Shown piece by piece: positions 7,242 through 64,000 of a stretch of 64,000 nt of DNA. The translations under genes were made by a program, and so were the position numbers. Position 1 is the first letter of the stretch; the number at the start of each line of letters is the position of its first letter. Under the pieces are notes generated by a model. It saw only the letters and a program-made list of their open reading frames with translations. It was not told where the DNA came from and did no database searches. Source of the stretch: Malacoraja senta (taxonomy: Eukaryota); assembly GCA_038087875.1 (NCBI GenBank), contig CM075995.1:2296001-2360000 (forward strand), in the 5' to 3' direction.

Positions 7242-8862
7242 CCTCGGACTATCCTTGATCGGACTTTGCTGGCTTTACGTTGCACTAAACATTATTTCCT
7301 TATCATGTATCTATACACTGTAAATGGCTCGATTGCAAACATGAAAGTACACAGCAAAACCTTTTCAATGTACCTCGGTACACGTGACAATAGAATGAAC
7401 TGTAAACAGTAAACGGCAAACTAAACTGTAAACTAAACTGTAAACTATACCGTCCGACATCGCCGTCGCACTGGGCCCACCGAACATCACAGCCGCACCC
7501 GGTCCTCCCAACATCGCCGCCGCACTGGGCCCATCCAGCATCGCCGCCGGACCAGGCCTACTCTACACGACCGCCGGACCGGGGCTCCCCGAACATGGCC
7601 GCCGCACCGCACCCTATTCACCCCATCGCCTCACCGGGCTGGTCGAACCGCGCCGCCCCACCGACCATCCACCTACCGGGAACTTCCACGCATCGCCCGT
7701 GGACCCCGACCATCGGGTCCGCCGACCCTCGCCACTGCAACGCCCCCCAGCCCCCCCGACTCCACTGCCCGAGGACTCCTACCGTCAGGTCCGCCGACCC
7801 TCGCCACTGCACCTCCCTCCAGCAGCCCGCAGCCGTCGCCTCACCTGCAGACTGGTCTCTGTACTGGGCTTGAAGCCTCCACGCTGCTCACTCCCACTCT
7901 CCTGGGTTTGACTCCACTGGGTCCTAGCGCTAGTCTGCCTAGATCGGATTACCTCCGTGTTAGTTCCACTGATTCTTCCCCATCCTTCTACAACTATGGG
8001 ACCCCTTCTCTTCCACACCCACACTACAGCCCTCTCACCCCCCCACCCCCTGAACACCCACCACCCCCCACCACCACATCGGCCTCGTCCCCATTCCACC
8101 CACCTGCCATCCTCCAGCCCCAACCCCCATCCCTGCCGGGTGTTCACCATCCCCCCGACCTCCCCCTCTCCGACATCGAACGGTCTGTCCTCAGCAGAGG
8201 TCTTACCTTTGTCCCCTCCGTCCCCACCTCAATGAGTTCCGTGCCCTCCATGACTTGGAACGCTTCTACCGTCGCCTCCGCCTCACAGCTCACTTCCATG
8301 GGAAGGAGTCCTCGCTCCCCACTGATGACCCCTTTTCCCGTCTCCCACGCACCCCCTCCTCATGGAACCCCCCTCGTAGCCTTCCGGCTTTAGAGCTCTT
8401 CATTCAAAACTGCCGCCGTGACATCAACCGCCTCAACTTCTCCACTCCCCTGTCTCACTCCAATCTCTCCCCCCCTGAACGCACTGCCATCGACTCACTC
8501 CGCAACAACCTAGATTGGGTTATCAAACCCGCCGACAAGGGAGGTGCCGTGGTAGTCTGGCGCGTCGATCTCTACAAAGCTGAGGCCACGCGCCAACTCT
8601 CGGACACCTCCTCCTACTTACCCCTGGACCATGACCTCACTGACGAGCACCAGGCCACCATCTCCAGCACCATCACCGACTTCATCCACTCCACGCCCTG
8701 CCCGACCGAGCCTCCAACCTCATCGTTCCCCAGCCCCGCACAGCCCGCTTTTACCTTCTCCCCAAAATCCACAAACTTGACTGTCCCGGTAGACCCATTG
8801 TCTCTGCCTGTTCGTGCCCCACCGAACTCATCTCCACCTACCTCGACTCCATCCTATCCCCC

Positions 8863-9714
8863 TTGGTTAAATCCCTCACCACCTATGTTCAAGACACCTC
8901 AGACACTCTCCGTCGTCTCCGCGCATTCCACTCTCTAGGCCCTCACCCCCTCATCTTCACCATGGACGTCCAGTCATTGTACACCTCCATCCCCCACCAG
9001 GATAGTCTCGAAGCCCTCCATTTTTTTCTCGACCGTAGAAGCAACCTATACCCGGCCACTGACACCCTCCTCCGCCTAGCGGAGCTGGTCCTTACACTTA
9101 ATAACTTTTCATTTGATTCCTCCCATTTCCTCCAAATACAAGGCGTAGCTATGGGCACACGCATGGGCCCCAGCTACGCATGCCTCTTTGTCGGGTACGT
9201 AGAACAATCCTTGTTCAATGCGTACCAGGGCCCCATCCCCGACCTCTACCTCCGCTACATCGATGATTGTTTTGGTGCCACATCCTGCACCCACACACAA
9301 CTGACTGACTTCATCCGCTTCACCACCAACTTCCATCCGGCACTCAAGTACACCTGGACCATTTCCGACACTTCCCTACCATTCCTTGACCTCACTATCT
9401 CCATCGAAGGTGATAGACTCCTTACCGACATCCACTACAAACCCACCGACTCCCATGGCTATCTGGACTACACTTCTTCCCACCCTGCTTCCTGTAAGGA
9501 CTCCATCCCCCACTCCCAATTCCCCTGTCTACGCCGCATCTGCTCCCAGGATGAGGCGTTCCACACCAGGGCATCTGAAATGTCCTCATTCTTCAGGGAA
9601 CGGGGGTTCCCCTCCTCCACCATAGATGAGGCTCGCACCAGGGTCTCTGCCATACCCCGCAACACTGCTCTCTCTCCCCATCCTCCCACTCACAACAAGG
9701 GCAGAGTCCCCTAG
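8863..9714 (+). pseudogene. PLE reverse transcriptase domain (ORF fragment)
   Basis: FTMDVQSLYTSI, QIQGVAMGTRMGPSYA, LRYIDD and LPFLDL; frameshifts on both sides. Confidence 0.9.
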
Positions 9715-9752
9715 TCCTCACCTTTCACCCCACCAGCCGTCACATACAACAA

Positions 9753-10319
9753 GTGATCCTCCGTCAGTTTCGCCACCTCCAACGTGACCCCACCACTCGC
9801 CACATCTTCCCATCTCCCCCCATGTCTGCCTTCTGCAAAGACCGCTCCCTCCGTAACTCCCTTGTCAATTCTTCCCTTCCCTCCCACACCACCCCCTCCC
9901 CTGGTACTTTCCCTTGCAACCGCAAGAGATGCAACACTTGTCCCTTCACCTCCCCCCTCGACTCCATTCAAGGACCCAAGCAGTCGTTCCAGGTGCGACA
10001 GAGGTTCACCTGCATCTCCTCCAACCTCATCTATTGCATCCGCTGCTCTAGATGCCAGCTGATCTACATCGGTGAGACCAAGCGGAGGCTTGGCGATCGT
10101 TTCGCCGAACACCTCCGGTCGGTCCGCAAAAACCAACTTGACCTCCCGGTGGCTCAGCACTTCAACTCCCCCTCCCATTCCATATCTGACCTCTCTCTCC
10201 TGGGTCTCCTCCATGGCCACAGCGAGCAACACCGTAAATTGGAGGAAATGCACCTCATATTCCGCTTGGGCAGTCTACATCCTGGGGGCTTGAACATTGA
10301 ATTCTCCCAATTCTGTTAG
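9753..10319 (+). pseudogene. PLE Cys linker plus GIY-YIG endonuclease (ORF fragment)
   Basis: CNRKRCNTC; NLIYCIRCSRC..IYIGETKRRLGDRFAEH; VAQHFN; terminal PGGLN. Confidence 0.9.
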
Positions 10320-10602: not shown

Positions 10603-11931
10603 CTAGACCAAGTGCAGACCCGTTGGGTCTGTTCCCCCCACGTGCGGTTGACGGGGGGGGGGGGGGCATGCGGCGTCACACACATTAACCACCCCCCACA
10701 CACACTAACTACCCCCCCTGCAAGGGGGGAGGGGGGAGAGGGAGGGGAGGGGGAGGGGGGAGAGGGAGGGGGAGGGGGGAGAGGGAGAGGGAGGGGAGGG
10801 GGAGGGGGGGTGGAGGGAGAGGAGAAAGGGAGGGGAGAGAGGGAGGGAGAGAGGGAGGGGACAGGGAGGGGGGTCAGAGAGGAGGGGGGTCAGAGAGGAT
10901 GGGGGTCAGAGAGGGGGGAACAGGGCGGGAGGACAGGGAGGGGGGGAACAGGGAGGAGGGGAACGGCCTCGCGGGGCCCGGTCCTACTTCGATCGCCGGA
11001 GGTATGGAGTTGTGCGGGGCTGGTCCCGACACCGTGCGGGGCTCCAAAAATCTTGCAATGTCCGAAAATCCCGCTCGCCAACAGCCTGTCGGCCTGCAGG
11101 CGCATTGAGGGCATACGCAGCGTCTCAACGTCGTACGCAGCGTCTTGATGTTGTACATAGCATCTTGACGGCGTACGCCTAGCACGTGGCATTGCACGAT
11201 GACCGTCACCGCCCGTAGTGCTGTTGCGTGATGATGTCACCGCCCGACGCCGTGCGACATCAAAATTCAGTCGGCCCGCCTCCTGCCCAGCTGATTGGTG
11301 AGTATGATGTCGGGCCAGCCCCGCACAACTCCATACGCCTCCGCGATTCGAATTGGGACCCGGCCCCCCGCGTGGCCGTACGCCTCAAGCGACCACGTTT
11401 GGTCGCGCTAGACGCATGCAATCGCATGCTGGTGGGACAATCATAACTGCCGCCGCCATGGTCAAGCCGGTGACCGGCTGTGACCTCCGGTGACCTCCCG
11501 ATCGGCAGAACATTTTGAGCAGGGGGGGTGGGTTGGAGTGAGCGGGCGGCGGGCGGGCTGTGGGAGCTGCGAGTGGCATGGCGCGAGCGTACATGGAGAG
11601 GGGGGGAGGGGCGGAGAGCCGGGCTGCCAAATGAAGAGAAAGAGAGAAACGGCTTGGATTGGTCGGCATGTAGGCATTGTGAATTCAGCAGCTGGTAAGA
11701 GCCGTTTAGATGTTAAAATTTTGTTTGAGTTTTGTGATCAATTTACTCAAAATCTGGGGAAATAATTGACCAAGGAGTGGATGTGTGAATGTAAAAGTAA
11801 AATCGCTAGCGAAATGGTAAAAATCTCGGCGTTTTTGCGTCTGGTTTTCGCAGAGTAACGAATCAAAGGCAAAAATCAAAGGCAAAAAAAACGCAAAATT
11901 GACATACACACACACAGAGTTTTAAAGTATA
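10603..11931 (-). mobile_element. Non-autonomous Helitron family 1, unit C (3'-most)
   Basis: Minus strand ends CAGACCC-aac-GGGTCTG-cacttggt-CTAG|T (hairpin 10615-10631, CTAG 10603-10606); 5' end reads TATACTTTAAAACTC. Confidence 0.8.
10970..11440. mobile_element. GC-rich MITE-like insert with ~60-bp inverted repeats (probable PIF/Harbinger relative)
   Basis: cgcggggcccggtcc...gtatggagttgtgcggggctgg (10970-11030) is inverted at ~11309-11372; the right end gtgggaca resembles the Harbinger TIRs seen elsewhere in the window. Confidence 0.5.
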
Positions 11932-14920
11932 CTAGACCACGTGCAGACACGTTGGGTCTGTTTCCCCAACACGCGTTTGCGGGGGGGGGGGGGCTGGTGG
12001 GAATCTGGCACCCACAAACACAAACACACACACTCATCACACCCCTTGATATTATCGAGAGAGGGGTGGGGAGGGGAGGAGAGAGGGATGGGGGAGGGGG
12101 AGAGAGGTGTGGGGAGGGGGGGAGGGTGGGGAGGAGGGAGATGGGGTAGGGGAGTGGGGAGAGAGGGAAGGGGGGTGGGGAGAGAGGGATGGGGTGGGGT
12201 AGGGGAGGGAGGGGGAAGAGCGTGGAGGGAGAGGGAAGGGAGGGGGGAGAGAGATGGGGAAGAGTGTGGAGGAAGGCGGAGAGGGGTAGGGGGGAGAGAG
12301 GAGGAAGAGTGGGGAGGGAGAGGGAAGGTAGGGGGGAGAGGTGTGGGGGAGGGAGATGTGGGGGGGTGGGGGATGGGGGGAGATAAGTGAAGAATGGGGA
12401 GGGAGGGGGAGAGGTGTAGGGGAGTGGTGGAAGTGGGAGAGAGGGAGGGGGAGAGGGTAGGGGAGTGGTGGAAGAGGGACAGAGGGTAGGGGGAAGGGGC
12501 GGGGGGAGAGAGGGAAGGGGGTGGGGAGAGAGGTGTGGGGAGGGGGGGAGGTATGGGGGAGGGAGATGAGGAGGAGATGGCGTAGGGGCGGGAAAAAGAA
12601 GAGTGTGGAGGGAGGGGGAGAGGGGTGGGGGAGAGAGGGAAAGAGTGGGGAGGGAGAGTGGGAGGGGGAGGGGGAGAGAAGTGGAAGAGTGGGGAGGAAG
12701 GGAGGGGGAGAGGGTAGGGAAGGGTGGGGAAGAGAGGGGATGGAGGGGGAAAGGAGGGGAGAGAGAGGGGTGGGGAGGGAGAGGGGTGGGATAAGGGGGT
12801 GAGGTGGAAGAGTGGGGAGGGAGGGGTAGGAGAGTGGTGGAAGAGGGACAGAGGGACAGAGGGGTAGGGGGAAGGGGGCGGGGGGAGAGAGGGAAGGGGG
12901 TGGGGAGAGAGGGATGGGGGTGGGAGGAGAGGGAGATGGAGGGGGAGTAGAGAGGGGTGGGGGAGGGGAGGCGAGAGTTGTGGGGGAGGGGGAATGGAGG
13001 CGAGGAGGAAGATGGGGTAGGGGGTAGAGGGGGAAGAGTGTGGATGGAAGGGAAGAGTGGGAGGGAGAAGGGGTTGGGGGAGAGAGGGAAGGGGTGGGAG
13101 AGGGAAGGTGGGAGAGGGAAGGGGGGTGGGGTAGAGAGGGATGGGGTGGGGGAGGAGAGGGTGAGGAGAGAGGGATGGGGGAGGGGGAGAGAGGGATGGG
13201 GGAGGGGGAGTGAGGTGTGGGGGAGGGGGGAGGGAGGCGAGGAGGGAGATGGGGTAGGGGAGAGAGGGGAAGAGTGTGGAGGGAGGGGGAAGAGTGGGGA
13301 GGGAGAAGGGTGAGGGGTAACGGGATGGGGGTGGGAGGGGTGGGGTGGGGGAGAGAGGGATGGGGGTGGGAGGAGGGGAGGAGAGGGCGAGGGAGATGGA
13401 GAGTGGGAGGAGAGAGGGGTGGGGGAGGGGAGGAGGGAGGGAGGGGGAGTGAGGGAGGAGAGGAGGAGATGGGGTAGGGGGGTGGGGGTGGGGGAAGGGG
13501 GTGGGGAGAGAGGGATAGGGGTGGGGTAGGGGAGGGAGGGGGAAGAGTGTGGAGGGAGAGGGAAGGGAGGGGGAGAGAGAGGGGTGAGGAGGGAGATGGG
13601 GAAGAGTGTGGAGGGAGGGAAGAGGGGTAGGGGGGAGAGAGGGGGAAGAGTGGGGAGGAAGAGAGAAGGGAGGGGGAGAGGGGTGGTGGAGGGAGATGGG
13701 GAGGGGTTGGGGAGATGTGGAAGAATGGGTAGGGAGGGGAGAGGTGTAGGGGTAGTGGTGGAAGTGGGAAAGAGGGAGGGGGAGAGGGGTAGGGGAGTGG
13801 TGGGACAGCGGGGTAGGGGGAAGGGGGCGGGGGAGAGAGGGAAGGGGTGGGGTAGAGAGGGAAGGGGTGGGGGAGAGAGGGAAGGGGGTGGGGAGAGAGG
13901 GTGGGGGAGAGAGGGGTGGGGGTGGGATGAGGAGGGGGAGAGGGGTGAGGAGAGGGAGATGGAGAGGGGGAGGAGAGGGGTGGGGGAGGCGAGGTGAGAG
14001 GGGAGGGGGAGAGAGGTGTGGGGGAGGGGGGAGGGAGGCGAGGAGGGAGATGGGTAGGGGGTAGAGGGGAAGACTGTGGATGGAGGGGAAGAGTGGGGAG
14101 GGGGATGGGGTGGGGGAGTGAGGGAAGGGGGTGGGGGAGGGAAGGGGGGTGGGGGGGAGAGGGAGGGGGTTGGGGAGGGAAGGGGGGAGAGGGAGGTGGT
14201 TGGGGAGAGTGGGATGGGGGTGGGAGGAGGATGGTGAGGAGAGGGAGAGGGTGAGGAGAGGGAGATGGAGAGGGGGAGGAGAGAGGGATGGGGAGGGGAG
14301 AGAGGGATGGGGAGGGAAGAGAGGTGTGGGGTAGCGGGGGAGTGATTGGGAAGGGAGGGGAGGAGGGAGATGGGGTAGGGAGGGAGGAGGAAGAGTGTGG
14401 AGGGAGGGGGAGAGGGGTGGGGGGAGAGAGGGGAAATAGTGGGGAGGGAGAGTGGAAGGGGGAGGGGGAGGGGACAGTCATCTGTTCCCATTCCCTATCA
14501 CCCCCAATCCTCTTTCTCTATTCCACACACGTGATGAGCCCTTCGACAGGCTTGGGGGGTGGGGGGAGGGCTGGGGCTGCTGCAAAGGCATATGTAAATG
14601 GATCCATTCCGATTGGACATCTGTGAGCATTGGGCATTGTGACATCACACGACGGAACCTTCACTAACATTCTATGGCTGAGATCTGTTATTTTTAACAT
14701 TTTGAAATTTTGGGGGTGGGGTGGAGAAGGATTTTATTAAAAACGAGTACATAAACACGACGAGATGTAATCAGGAGTGGCTACTCGTAAAGAAAGTGAA
14801 ACCTCTACCGAAATGGAAAATATCTCGGCGTTTCTGCGTGCGGTGAGGTATCAAAGGCTGGCTGGCACAAGTCAAGCAGACACACACACACACACACACA
14901 CACAGAGTTTTAAAGATAGA
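11932..14920 (-). mobile_element. Non-autonomous Helitron family 1, unit B (carries a 2.4-kb purine tract)
   Basis: 5' TCTATCTTTAAAACTC at 14920; 3' hairpin plus CTAG at 11932-11960. Confidence 0.8.
12058..14475 (+). repeat. G/A-rich low-complexity tract
   Basis: About 2.4 kb of mostly G and A with sparse T, in loosely repeated ggggagagaggg-type units. Confidence 0.95.
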
Positions 14921-15570
<650 letters not shown>

Positions 15571-17479: not shown

Positions 17480-18465
17480 CTAGACTAAGTGGGTCCCTGT
17501 CACACAGGAGGCTTGGTCCCCCAACGCAATATTCCACCACTCACCATAGCCCCCAACTGCACAGGCCACAGCTCATTTCCCTTCATCCCTAGCACTCTCT
17601 CCCCTCCTCTTCACCCTCCCTCTTCTTTCCCCTCTCCTCCTCCCCTCCCCCAATCCCTTCCTCACCTCTCTCTCCCTCTCCTTTCCTCTACCCTCAATCA
17701 CTCCCTCCCTCCCTCCCTCCCTCCCTAACCTCTCTCCTCCCTCCTTCCTCCTCTCCTCTATCCCCTCTCCTCCCCCACTCTCCCTCCCCAGGACCTCGAG
17801 GTTGCTGCTCCTCTCCCTTCTTGCGTGAGCCAGAGGAGAATCAGCCATCGGTGCCCCTAGAGCCAGCCTCGGATCGGCCCGGAAGCACCAGCAAGTACGG
17901 CTGCGCCAGCATGTGGGCAAGGGGGGGGGAGGGGGAGGGACGTGAGGGGGGGAGTGCTCAGAGAAAAGATGGGGGAAGAGCCATGGGGGAGAGGGGGTAT
18001 CACGGGGAGGGGGCAGGAGCCAGCGAGGGGACCAGAGGGGAAGGCTGGAGCTGCGGGGAGTTGCGATTTGAGGTGCTGTTTGGACTCACAGCGGGAACTG
18101 GACACTCTCCTCCGCCGGGATCAGACTCTCCACTTTCTGCTTGCCGACATTTCCGACGCCGGGGCCGCTTCCGGTCCCTCCGGAAATTGGAGACTTCCGC
18201 CGGCATCCTCAGCTCCAGTAAAGACGCGATGGCGCAGGAAGGGGCGGACCGTCCCGCGGAATGACAATCCAAATCCTAAGACGATTTGAACCTTGCTAAC
18301 CTTCACAATAGACCACTGATCCGAACGAAACTTGATGCCTCGCAGCACTGGAGAACGGTGAGTGAGCTGGCGAAAAATCGTAGCGCTATCGCGTATCGTT
18401 TTTACGCAATTAGAAACACCACACAAACCGGAAGAGCACAAGATCAAAGTTTTATTTATAGATAG
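17480..18465 (-). mobile_element. Non-autonomous Helitron family 2, copy A
   Basis: Minus strand starts TCTATAAATAAAACTTTGATCTTGTGCTCTTCCGG and ends ...cacttagtCTAG|T; interrupts a CR1 tail at gaga|tagat; both end regions are shared with 62306-64000. Confidence 0.72.
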
Positions 18466-18549
18466 ATAGATGGATGGATGGATGGATGGATGGATGGATG
18501 GATGGATTGGATGGATGGATGGATGGATGATGGATGGATGGAAGGATGG

Positions 18550-18582
<33 letters not shown>

Positions 18583-18686
18583 AGGATGGATGGATGGATG
18601 GATGGATGGATGGATGAAGATGGATGGATGGATGGATGGATGGATGGATGGATGGATGGATGGATAGATGAGTAGATGGATAGATG

Positions 18687-18753
<67 letters not shown>
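18458..18753. repeat. Compound (GATA)/(GGAT)/(GACA)n microsatellite
   Basis: Read directly from the sequence. Confidence 0.97.
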
Positions 18754-18754
<1 letters not shown>

Positions 18755-61570: not shown

Positions 61571-62305
61571 TTCTGCACTGTTACCCGAATGCTGCCTGGA
61601 ATCGGAGGTTTCAGCTATAAGGAGAGGTTGGATAGACTTGTTTTCTCTGTAACGTTGGAGGGGCAATATACAGAAAAAATTAACCTGTAAACTCATTTTT
61701 GGGATGTTGGTGATCATTGGTCGCACGCACTAGCTGGGCCGAATGGCCTGTTTCAACTCTGCATCTCCAAAATTCAATTCATTTCCATACAGTTGGCTGT
61801 GGAGGCCAAGTTAATGGATATTTTTAAGGTGTAGATTGACAGCTTATTGATTAGTACAGGATTATTACAGGTGTTATGGGAGGAATGCAGGAGAAAGGAG
61901 TTGAGAGGGAGAGATAGATCATTAACAATTGAATGGCAGAGTAGACTTGATGGGCCGAATGGCCTAATTCTGCTCCTATAACTTATGATCTCGAAGTAAA
62001 ACTGTCAACAAAATTTGGGATAATATTCATAATTGATAGAACATAGAACATAGGACAGTACACCATCGGCCTTTCGGCCCACAATGTCTGTGCTGTTCAC
62101 AATGCCAAATAAACTAATCTCATCTGCCTGCACATGATCCATATCCCTCCATTCCCTGCACATCCAGTTGCCGACCTAAAAACTCTTAAACGTCACTGTT
62201 GTATCTGCCTCCACCATTACTTCTGGCAGTATGTTCCAAAGATCATAGAGTGGAGTATGTTCCAGGCACCCACCACTCTTTGTGTAAACAAACTTGCCAT
62301 GCACA

Positions 62306-64000
62306 TCTATCTTCTTCTATCTATCTATCTATCTCTACATCTATCTTCTATCTATCTTCTATCCATCCATCCATCCATCCATCCATCCATCCATCCATCC
62401 ATCCATCCATCCATCCATCCATCCATCCATCCATCCATCTATCCATCCACCCATCCACCCATCCACCCATCCACCCATCCACCCATCCACCCATCCACCC
62501 ATCCACCCATCCACCCATCCACCCATCCACCCATCCATCCATCCATCCATCCATCCATCCATCCATCCATCCATCCATCCACCCACCTACCTTCCTACCT
62601 ACCTATCATCTCTTTATATATAACTAAAACTGATCTTATGCTCTTCCGGTTTGCGGGGTTTTTCTACTTGCGCAAAAATGGTACACAATAGCACTACGAG
62701 TTTTCGCCAGGTTACTCACCGTTCTCCTGTGCTGCGAGTGCAACAAGTTTCGTTCTGATCGGTGGTATATTGTAAAAGTTATCGTGGTTTAAAAATCTTT
62801 AAAACCGCACATGCGCAGATTCCTTCAGTCAGCGCCACGCAGATTGCTCTCTTCTCCTGTCAGTCAATGCCACGGCCGGGATGGCAAAGCCCCTTCCTGC
62901 CCCACCGTCGGCGGCCTGTCCCGTCTCACTCACAAACTCCTCTCTCCCCTCCTCACAGTAACTTGTCTATCGTCTACCCCACCACCGGCGGCGGCCACGA
63001 GGAGGGGGTTCAGTGGAGGCCCAGTGGAGACGCTGGTCCCGTCTCTCTCTCTCTCCCTCATTATTCACCCCTCTCCCCTGCCTGCCCTCTGCGGCAATGG
63101 CGGGTCCCGTCTACCCGTCCCCCCGAATCTGTCTCCTCTGCTGCCGCCGCTGCAGTAACTCACCCTCACGGCCCTTCTCGGAGGAGATCTTCTCCACCAG
63201 CTCATCAAAACTCGTGGTGCCCACCATGCCGAACATCGACTCCATTCCCCCCCCGGCAGCGGCAGCGAGCAGGCAGGCAGGTAGGCGGGCGGGCAGGGAC
63301 GGGCCTAGCGGTAGCAGCGGGCAGTCGGACAGGATGGGGTCAGGCCGAGCGGCGGCTGAGCCGGAGTGGGCAGAGGGAGGGAGGGAGAGTCGGTTTGCAG
63401 GGTGGTCGAACAGTTTGCGCAAAGTTTGAGTAAATCACACACACACACAAACTGGTCCAATCGTCAAGTCAACGGGATCTAAACCACAGCTAACAACGAA
63501 TGACCTGTGGAGGAAGGAACTGCAGATGCTGCTTTTTATGGAGGGAGAGGGTGACTGAGGGTAGGGGAAAGGAGAGGGAGGGAGAGGTGCGGTAGTGATT
63601 GGGGAGGAGAGGGGAAAGATCCTGGGGAGGTGAGGAGGGAGTGTGGGGGGATTGAGGGAGAGGAAGGGGTAGGGAGGGAGAGGGGGAAAGTGGGGGAGAT
63701 GAGGAGAGTGGGGGAGGAGGAGGAATAGAGAGAGAGGAGGGAGGAGTGGGGGAGGTCAGGAGGGATAGTGGGGGGGATAGGGGGAGGTGAGGAGTGGGGG
63801 ATAGAGGGATAGGAAGGGGTTGGGGGGAGAGGAGTTATGGAGGGAGGGAGTGACTGAGGGTAGGGGAAAGGAGGGGGAGGGAGAGGTGAGGAAGGGATTG
63901 GGGGAGTGGGGGTGGAGAGGGGAAAGAAGAGGGAGGGTGAAGAGGAGGGGAGGGAGTACTGGGGGATGAGGGGAAATGAGCCACGCCTGCGCAGTTGGGG
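62306..64000 (+). mobile_element. Non-autonomous Helitron family 2, copy B (runs off the window), preceded by (TCTA)/(TCCA)n at 62306-62607
   Basis: 62610-62780 matches the 5' end of 17480-18465; 63961-64000 matches its 3' subterminal region; interrupts a CR1 tail at gcacA|Tc. Confidence 0.7.
63164..63245 (-). other. Candidate captured host first coding exon (27 codons plus 1 nt, MESMFGMVGTTSFDELVEKISSEKGRE)
   Basis: ggaATGG Kozak context, GC-rich upstream UTR-like sequence, strong GC3 codon bias, and a G|GTGAGT donor at 63163-63158. Confidence 0.5.

Follow-up and report, generated by a model that had tools for sequence, protein, structure and literature searches.

The locus examined here raises the question of whether a short GC-rich segment at 63158–63305 of the window (the whole 64,000-nt stretch of DNA that was analysed) is the first exon of a host gene carried inside a Helitron and, if so, which gene it came from. 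A first-pass annotation had proposed such a host first exon and left the donor gene unnamed. We found that the segment is exon 1 of ALG13 together with its splice donor. The host-exon proposal was borne out: the segment is multi-copy, lies between Helitron-type ends and has a spliced parental sequence that uses the same donor. The window very probably holds a decayed, antisense copy of this exon in a multi-copy repeat, likely a non-autonomous Helitron, which probably copied it at the DNA level and then spread it by rolling-circle transposition.

On the minus strand, an ATG at 63245–63243 is followed by 27 open codons and then by G(63164)|GTGAGT (63163–63158), encoding the peptide given at first pass. 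G or C occupies 23 of the 27 third positions, and the sequence upstream of the ATG (63246–63305) is 82% GC. The UTR-like stretch antisense to the element, the perfect GTGAGT donor and the third-position bias described earlier are thus all present, and the exon segment is CpG-rich in the window. Rfam returned no matches in 62000–64000. Self-comparison of the window gave no second match to 63100–63320, so the segment is missing from the sister copy at 17480–18465, as had been noted; however, the whole sister interior differs, not this segment alone. By composition, the arrangement is moderately rare: GC3 is at least 0.85 in 3 of the 25 open ATG-to-GTRAGT pairs of the window, the two others lying inside a reverse-transcriptase element (8621–8685). 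It is homology evidence, rather than composition, that makes the segment more than chance.

Used directly as a query, the window peptide was uninformative, with a best E of 0.95 against the PDB, no hit at E ≤ 10 among 92 candidates in a homologue search and no matches to representative proteins. Its sole Pfam match, RHH_ERCC6L2 (E 0.15), belongs to an unrelated family and was judged to be chance. The lead to ALG13 came from sequencing-run contigs aligned on 62612–63545, where the variant letters in other copies suggested ALG13; the identity was tested afterwards. A degenerate pattern built from window codons 8–16 led to 37 metagenome loci; judged by eye, the context resembled ALG13 in 19 of them and did not in the other 18. 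PF04101 was matched in five of the six motif loci scanned, the exception being a 28-residue piece of locus L016. One PF04101 locus used as a query returned 1,248 proteins; all 120 of those listed carry PF04101, and most of the named ones are ALG13.

With these 120 listed ALG13-family proteins (of 1,248) as tblastn queries, the best window match was 63165–63245 for 113. The first-pass annotation had suggested a protein search with the peptide; that direction stayed blank and the converse one succeeded. The best match among the proteins listed was the N terminus of Mobula ALG13, in which 18/24 residues are identical to the window peptide (E 3e-6), and a profile of ALG13 reached E 3e-4 at the segment among 3,259 six-frame segments (next best 2.5), values that are partly circular and not independent because the protein set was reached through a window-derived motif. 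ALG13 from Heterodontus and Chiloscyllium shared 16/24 residues; the closest proteins among those listed come from one ray and three sharks (18/24 versus 16/24), so that the host is likely a cartilaginous fish, and no skate ALG13 was among the listed proteins (120 of 1,248 and 120 of 605). The matching stretch is residues 1–24, that is, the protein N terminus.

The sequences of other copies provide a second line of evidence. Forty of the 377 letter differences between the window and other copies were listed, of which five fall in the coding part. Three of these change a residue (codons 4, 6 and 7), and all three restore the ALG13 majority residue. The window residues at these codons occur in 1/176, 0/179 and 0/179 ALG13 proteins, those of the other copies in 150/176, 170/179 and 179/179. 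Only 8 of the 216 possible single-base changes in codons 1–24 would give the ALG13 majority residue. The alternative letters at codons 4, 6 and 7 are in the majority in run X1 (72–99% of depth). Since neither the variant letters nor the spliced junction described below served to find ALG13 in these searches, they act as independent checks.

Four runs were aligned, X1 and X9 (DNA), X22 and X23, from two coded organisms, A and F; X22 and X23 are two samples from one study of organism F. Runs X22 and X23 each contain a single contig whose loose end (at least 255 letters) lies at 63176 and is common to the two runs, these junction contigs coming from the 24 loose ends listed of 1,350. Read by eye on the minus strand, the exon end in the loose-end contig is one base shorter, and I-L-K-D-L-G codons then replace GTGAGT. 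Its nine codons match residues 25–33 of Carcharodon ALG13 at seven of nine positions, and the sequence after the junction in the X22 and X23 contigs corresponds to ALG13 residues 28–33. As the contigs depart there into exon-2 codons, the window donor at 63163 is the real ALG13 intron-1 donor, and the parental boundary falls after codon 27 in phase 0, a reading that assumes no further indel between the ATG and 63176. The search for RNA junctions at this donor that had been suggested at first pass thus had a positive outcome, with the RNA status of both runs guessed by the tool. The phase-1 boundary (G|GTGAGT) reported earlier has to be given up: it is the product of one extra base in this copy.

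Parental ALG13 is therefore a separate, spliced exon 1–exon 2 sequence (X22, X23), known from contigs rather than from a genomic locus. Further support for the boundary came from an unrelated animal ALG13 on a metagenome contig (locus L037, 258–335), in which GT follows the equivalent codon and the next exon begins I-L; its first intron has the same codon position and phase as the one we infer for the fish gene. In gene models P0121 and P0176, ALG13 similarity begins at residue 28. The first-pass annotation had staked its reading on a vertebrate protein that agrees with both the peptide and the exon boundary, and ALG13 matches both.

We then considered the carrier. The exon is located between the 5′ end (62609) of a non-autonomous Helitron-like element, copy B, and its subterminal 3′ region. 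The 5′ terminal region of copy B (62609–62793, plus strand) aligns over 186 nt, at 83% identity, with the corresponding end of its sister, copy A. It starts with A|TC at 62608/62609, where 62609–62613 is ambiguous and the start possibly lies up to 4 nt further in; contigs of other copies read A then TCTATACATAAC at this end. An (ATCC)n microsatellite (62361–62585) directly precedes it. Next comes the interior on the intron side of the donor (62794–63157), which is absent from the sister and tiled by contigs of other copies; the sequence closest to the donor is probably intron 1 of ALG13. The donor itself (63158–63163), the decayed coding part of ALG13 exon 1 (63164–63245) and what is likely a captured part of the ALG13 5′ UTR (63246–63305, with high depth in X23) follow, all on the minus strand. 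Upstream of the captured exon, the GC-rich interior (63306–63498) varies between copies, and many internal joints were seen between 63253 and 63343 in DNA contigs. A fragment of a very high-copy interspersed repeat occupies 63499–63535, with nine other matches in the window and a depth peak in all four runs. The subterminal 3′ region (63851–64000, plus strand) is 88.7% identical over 151 columns to sister positions 17700–17551. Because the sister reaches CTAG 71 nt after this matching region, the CTAG end of copy B is predicted about 70 nt past the window edge, near 64070.

Copy A (17480–18466, minus strand) has the same ends, a different interior and no ALG13 exon. It runs from A|TC at 18466 to CTAG|T at 17480, and three paralogous empty sites of copy A read GAGA^TAGA, indicating for this copy insertion at A^T with no target duplication. 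Its 3′ hairpin is weak: the stem measures 5 bp, lies 16 nt from the end and has a z of −0.21. The parts common to the two copies are confined to the 5′ end of about 186 nt and a GA-rich 3′ part. No Pfam family was matched by the frames within copies A and B, and neither a RepHel frame nor an autonomous partner was identified; one 40-residue frame of the copy A interior likewise had no Pfam match. Helitron membership is well supported for the family, and for the 3′ end of copy B we infer it. Of the earlier statement that the exon lies inside a Helitron, the antisense position between Helitron-like ends stands; the closing CTAG end, beyond the window, is a prediction.

Several further features of the window were recorded alongside these copies. 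The copy A interior at 17790–18290 has a GC content of 0.63, a CpG o/e of 0.68 and a donor-like GTGAGT at 18089 on the minus strand, and could represent another captured 5′ gene end. A further three 3′ ends of Helitron type lie within 10603–15435 (CTAG|T at 10603, 11932 and 14921, all minus and apparently head to tail); those at 10603 and 14921 have a 7-bp hairpin stem 12 nt from the end, and the nearby interior at 10950–11720 has a CpG o/e of 1.04. Long tetranucleotide microsatellites (62361–62585, 18461–18754 and 15435–15570) adjoin the 5′ ends of Helitron-like copies. At 8054–10319, a GIY-YIG frame (PF01541, E 1e-4) comes after a broken reverse transcriptase (PF00078, E 9e-7), a domain order that we take to be a Penelope-like layout.

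The exon-bearing family is old and multi-copy, and at least two coded organisms have it. In the DNA runs of the two organisms, the other letter was found in 99 and 105 contigs at 63207 and in 82 and 88 contigs at 63229 (contigs per position being tallied up to 128), so that about 80–105 distinct contigs cover the exon in each organism; summed contig depth is not copy number. All 30 bins of 62612–63545 were covered in both DNA runs. In X1, 7,995 of 11,199 contigs are less than 95% identical to the window, a total that includes the high-copy repeat fragment at 63499–63535. Overlapping contigs of other copies tile from 62630 through the exon to 63536, linking 5′ end, interior and exon piecewise, and no single contig in the aligned runs spans the whole element. 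The many Helitron-embedded copies anticipated at first pass thus correspond to 82–105 contigs per DNA run at exon positions, with piecewise linkage to the 5′ end. Part of the stretch occurs in 23 of the 24 runs listed (eight coded organisms, ten studies), with no RNA run on record among them; the small shares in runs other than the four aligned were not counted as evidence.

A joint from 63059 to 63514, with a depth of 934 in X1, skips the exon region. It may mark an exon-less subfamily, or it may be an artefact of the (TC)n run beside the high-copy repeat. We did not read it as the element before capture, since the joint connects the (TC)n run with a repeat fragment of very high copy number.

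These data bear on whether the ALG13 piece was instead amplified by another carrier, either a different non-autonomous DNA element or a segmental duplication, that merely adjoins Helitron ends here. Such a carrier would account for an interior wholly unlike that of the sister and for the exon-skipping joint, and it is compatible with a copy B 3′ end outside the window and the lack of a spanning contig. Yet the overlapping contigs of diverged copies connect the 5′ end, interior, exon and 63536, and both terminal regions match the Helitron-type sister. We therefore regard another carrier as quite improbable and retain the Helitron as the vehicle.

We next asked whether this copy could be ALG13 itself. 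It could not encode the enzyme: the window copy of exon 1 is dead. It carries three substitutions at conserved residues (codons 4, 6 and 7) and one extra base near 63172–63175. The extra base is missing from 32, 16 and 22 contigs in X1 and from 32, 16 and 15 in X9, the three counts per run likely representing alternative placements of one gap. It accounts for the last three residues of the first-pass peptide and the phase-1 boundary, and puts the last codons out of frame; the coding part is 82 nt long in the window copy as opposed to an inferred 81 nt in the parent. A search with ALG13 proteins found no other ALG13 exon in the window, including the 63 kb downstream. A functional gene whose exon 1 had become flanked by inserted Helitron ends would explain the intact ATG, open frame and perfect donor, as well as the CpG richness of the segment. 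Against this, the N-terminal motif is altered, with residues at codons 6 and 7 seen in none of 179 ALG13 proteins, the frame is shifted before the donor, downstream exons are absent from the window and the segment is multi-copy. On the basis of the substitutions, the extra base and the lack of another ALG13 exon in the window, we conclude that the copy is not the gene, and the alternative is very hard to sustain.

The capture that we propose would have begun with the copying of a gene fragment from ALG13 at the DNA level, comprising the first 27 codons together with some of the 5′ UTR before them and the donor of intron 1 after them. The fragment would then have spread by rolling-circle transposition, presumably mobilized by RepHel protein supplied in trans, and the copies are most likely decaying neutrally. 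Insertion of a retrocopied ALG13 mRNA into a Helitron was weighed as another origin: the window is rich in retroelement fragments, and LINE-mediated mRNA insertion into Helitrons is discussed in the available part of a Xenopus study (PMC12001565). In the element, however, it is intron-side sequence, not exon 2, that follows the donor, and this retained intron side makes a retrocopy highly improbable. A chance open frame in GC-rich element DNA, to which the equally high GC3 of 3 of the 25 ATG-to-donor pairs in the window and the blank unbiased peptide searches would be congenial, deserves scarcely any credence, as the variant letters and the spliced junction point to ALG13 and the junction refutes it.

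With DNA-level capture as the preferred origin, its upstream limit can be approached from one X23 contig: at 63305, which is 60 nt upstream of the ATG, it parts from the element and continues as at least 255 unrelated letters. If this contig represents the ALG13 leader, a limit resting on one contig, the captured piece may extend from about 60 nt of UTR through the coding exon and donor into intron 1, and the promoter is perhaps missing. The loose letters behind 63305 in X23 contain a plus-strand ATG whose start context is strong; it lies about 75 nt from the start codon of ALG13 and may belong to a gene arranged head to head with ALG13 at the parental locus. No chimeric junction from the captured donor was seen among the 24 loose ends listed of 1,350.

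Three routes of capture were compared. Template switching or gap filling between existing family ends is the one we favour by a modest degree of belief, because both ends are common to the exon-less sister and the match to the parental transcript stops at about 63305. A compound element formed from two flanking copies and later trimmed by deletion is a reasonable, less probable route. Simple 3′-end bypass with acquisition of a new end is unlikely, given that the sister without the exon has both of the same ends.

These findings suggest that the capture of exons by Helitrons, as in bats and frogs, probably took place in the cartilaginous-fish lineage as well: the mechanism is known, and the lineage and donor gene are apparently unreported for it. 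They extend Helitron exon capture to a vertebrate lineage for which we found no report, and name the donor gene and its boundary. The unexplained bias towards 5′ gene ends becomes testable in a third lineage, one that evolves slowly and retains old copies. The first exon of an essential gene doubles as a repeat here, and this can be expected to disturb repeat masking, read mapping and the ALG13 gene models of these genomes. A more speculative scenario, which we consider rather doubtful, is that hundreds to thousands of cassettes of ALG13 start codon and donor spread through the genomes of cartilaginous fish before at least two species split, and that some now serve as first exons of chimeric transcripts or the repeat attracts silencing to exon 1 of the essential gene. 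Were this so, the bat pattern, with antisense 5′ gene ends as the most amplified cargo, would have arisen independently a second time.

Our literature search found no report of Helitron capture in cartilaginous fish or of ALG13; Repbase, Dfam and subscription journals lay outside it, and a repeat entry may exist. The accessible portions of PMC5381603, PMC10468316 and PMC6817897 describe no Helitron capture in cartilaginous fish, and four of the five supplement files of the bat survey (PMC4224331) contain no match to ALG13. The first-pass annotation had regarded capture as established for bat and maize Helitrons. For bats this holds in the available sections of that survey, where fragments of 54 genes are biased to the promoter, 5′ UTR, first exon and first intron; since capture is also described in Xenopus (PMC12001565, as far as available), it extends beyond bats and maize. 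In the same sections of the bat survey, Thomas et al. found that Helitron ends of related sequence adjoined the parent gene in 3 cases and were absent in 26.

The termini and A^T target of sister copy A are those of Helraiser, as given in the available text of PMC4778049. The layout of copy B resembles that of HelibatN3 (NUBPL) and HelibatN217.1 (TMBIM4) of vesper bats, in which, according to the accessible parts of PMC4224331 and PMC4778049, the 5′ UTR, together with first exon and donor, lies antisense at high copy number; TMBIM4 is reverse-oriented in bat Helitrons, NUBPL is amplified to thousands of copies (PMC4224331) and NUBPL-bearing elements are exon traps (PMC4778049). Here, by contrast, the lineage and donor gene are different and the supported length of UTR is about 60 nt, whereas for NUBPL in bats both the capture of a promoter and chimeric transcripts are documented. 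The young Heli1Xen1 family of Xenopus laevis is portrayed in the available part of PMC12001565 with 19 captured fragments, 17 of them from 5′ ends, over 64 insertions, a highest count of 17 copies and a bias to the same sense. In contrast, the ALG13 fragment is single and antisense; each run has about 100 distinct contigs or more with it, and most contigs share less than 95% identity with the window. In its short isoform, ALG13 is the active, widely conserved enzyme subunit (PMC9527342, accessible part). Compared with ALG13 itself, a UDP-N-acetylglucosamine transferase subunit (PF04101), the element carries exon 1 only, substituted and frameshifted, with the boundary after codon 27 the same.
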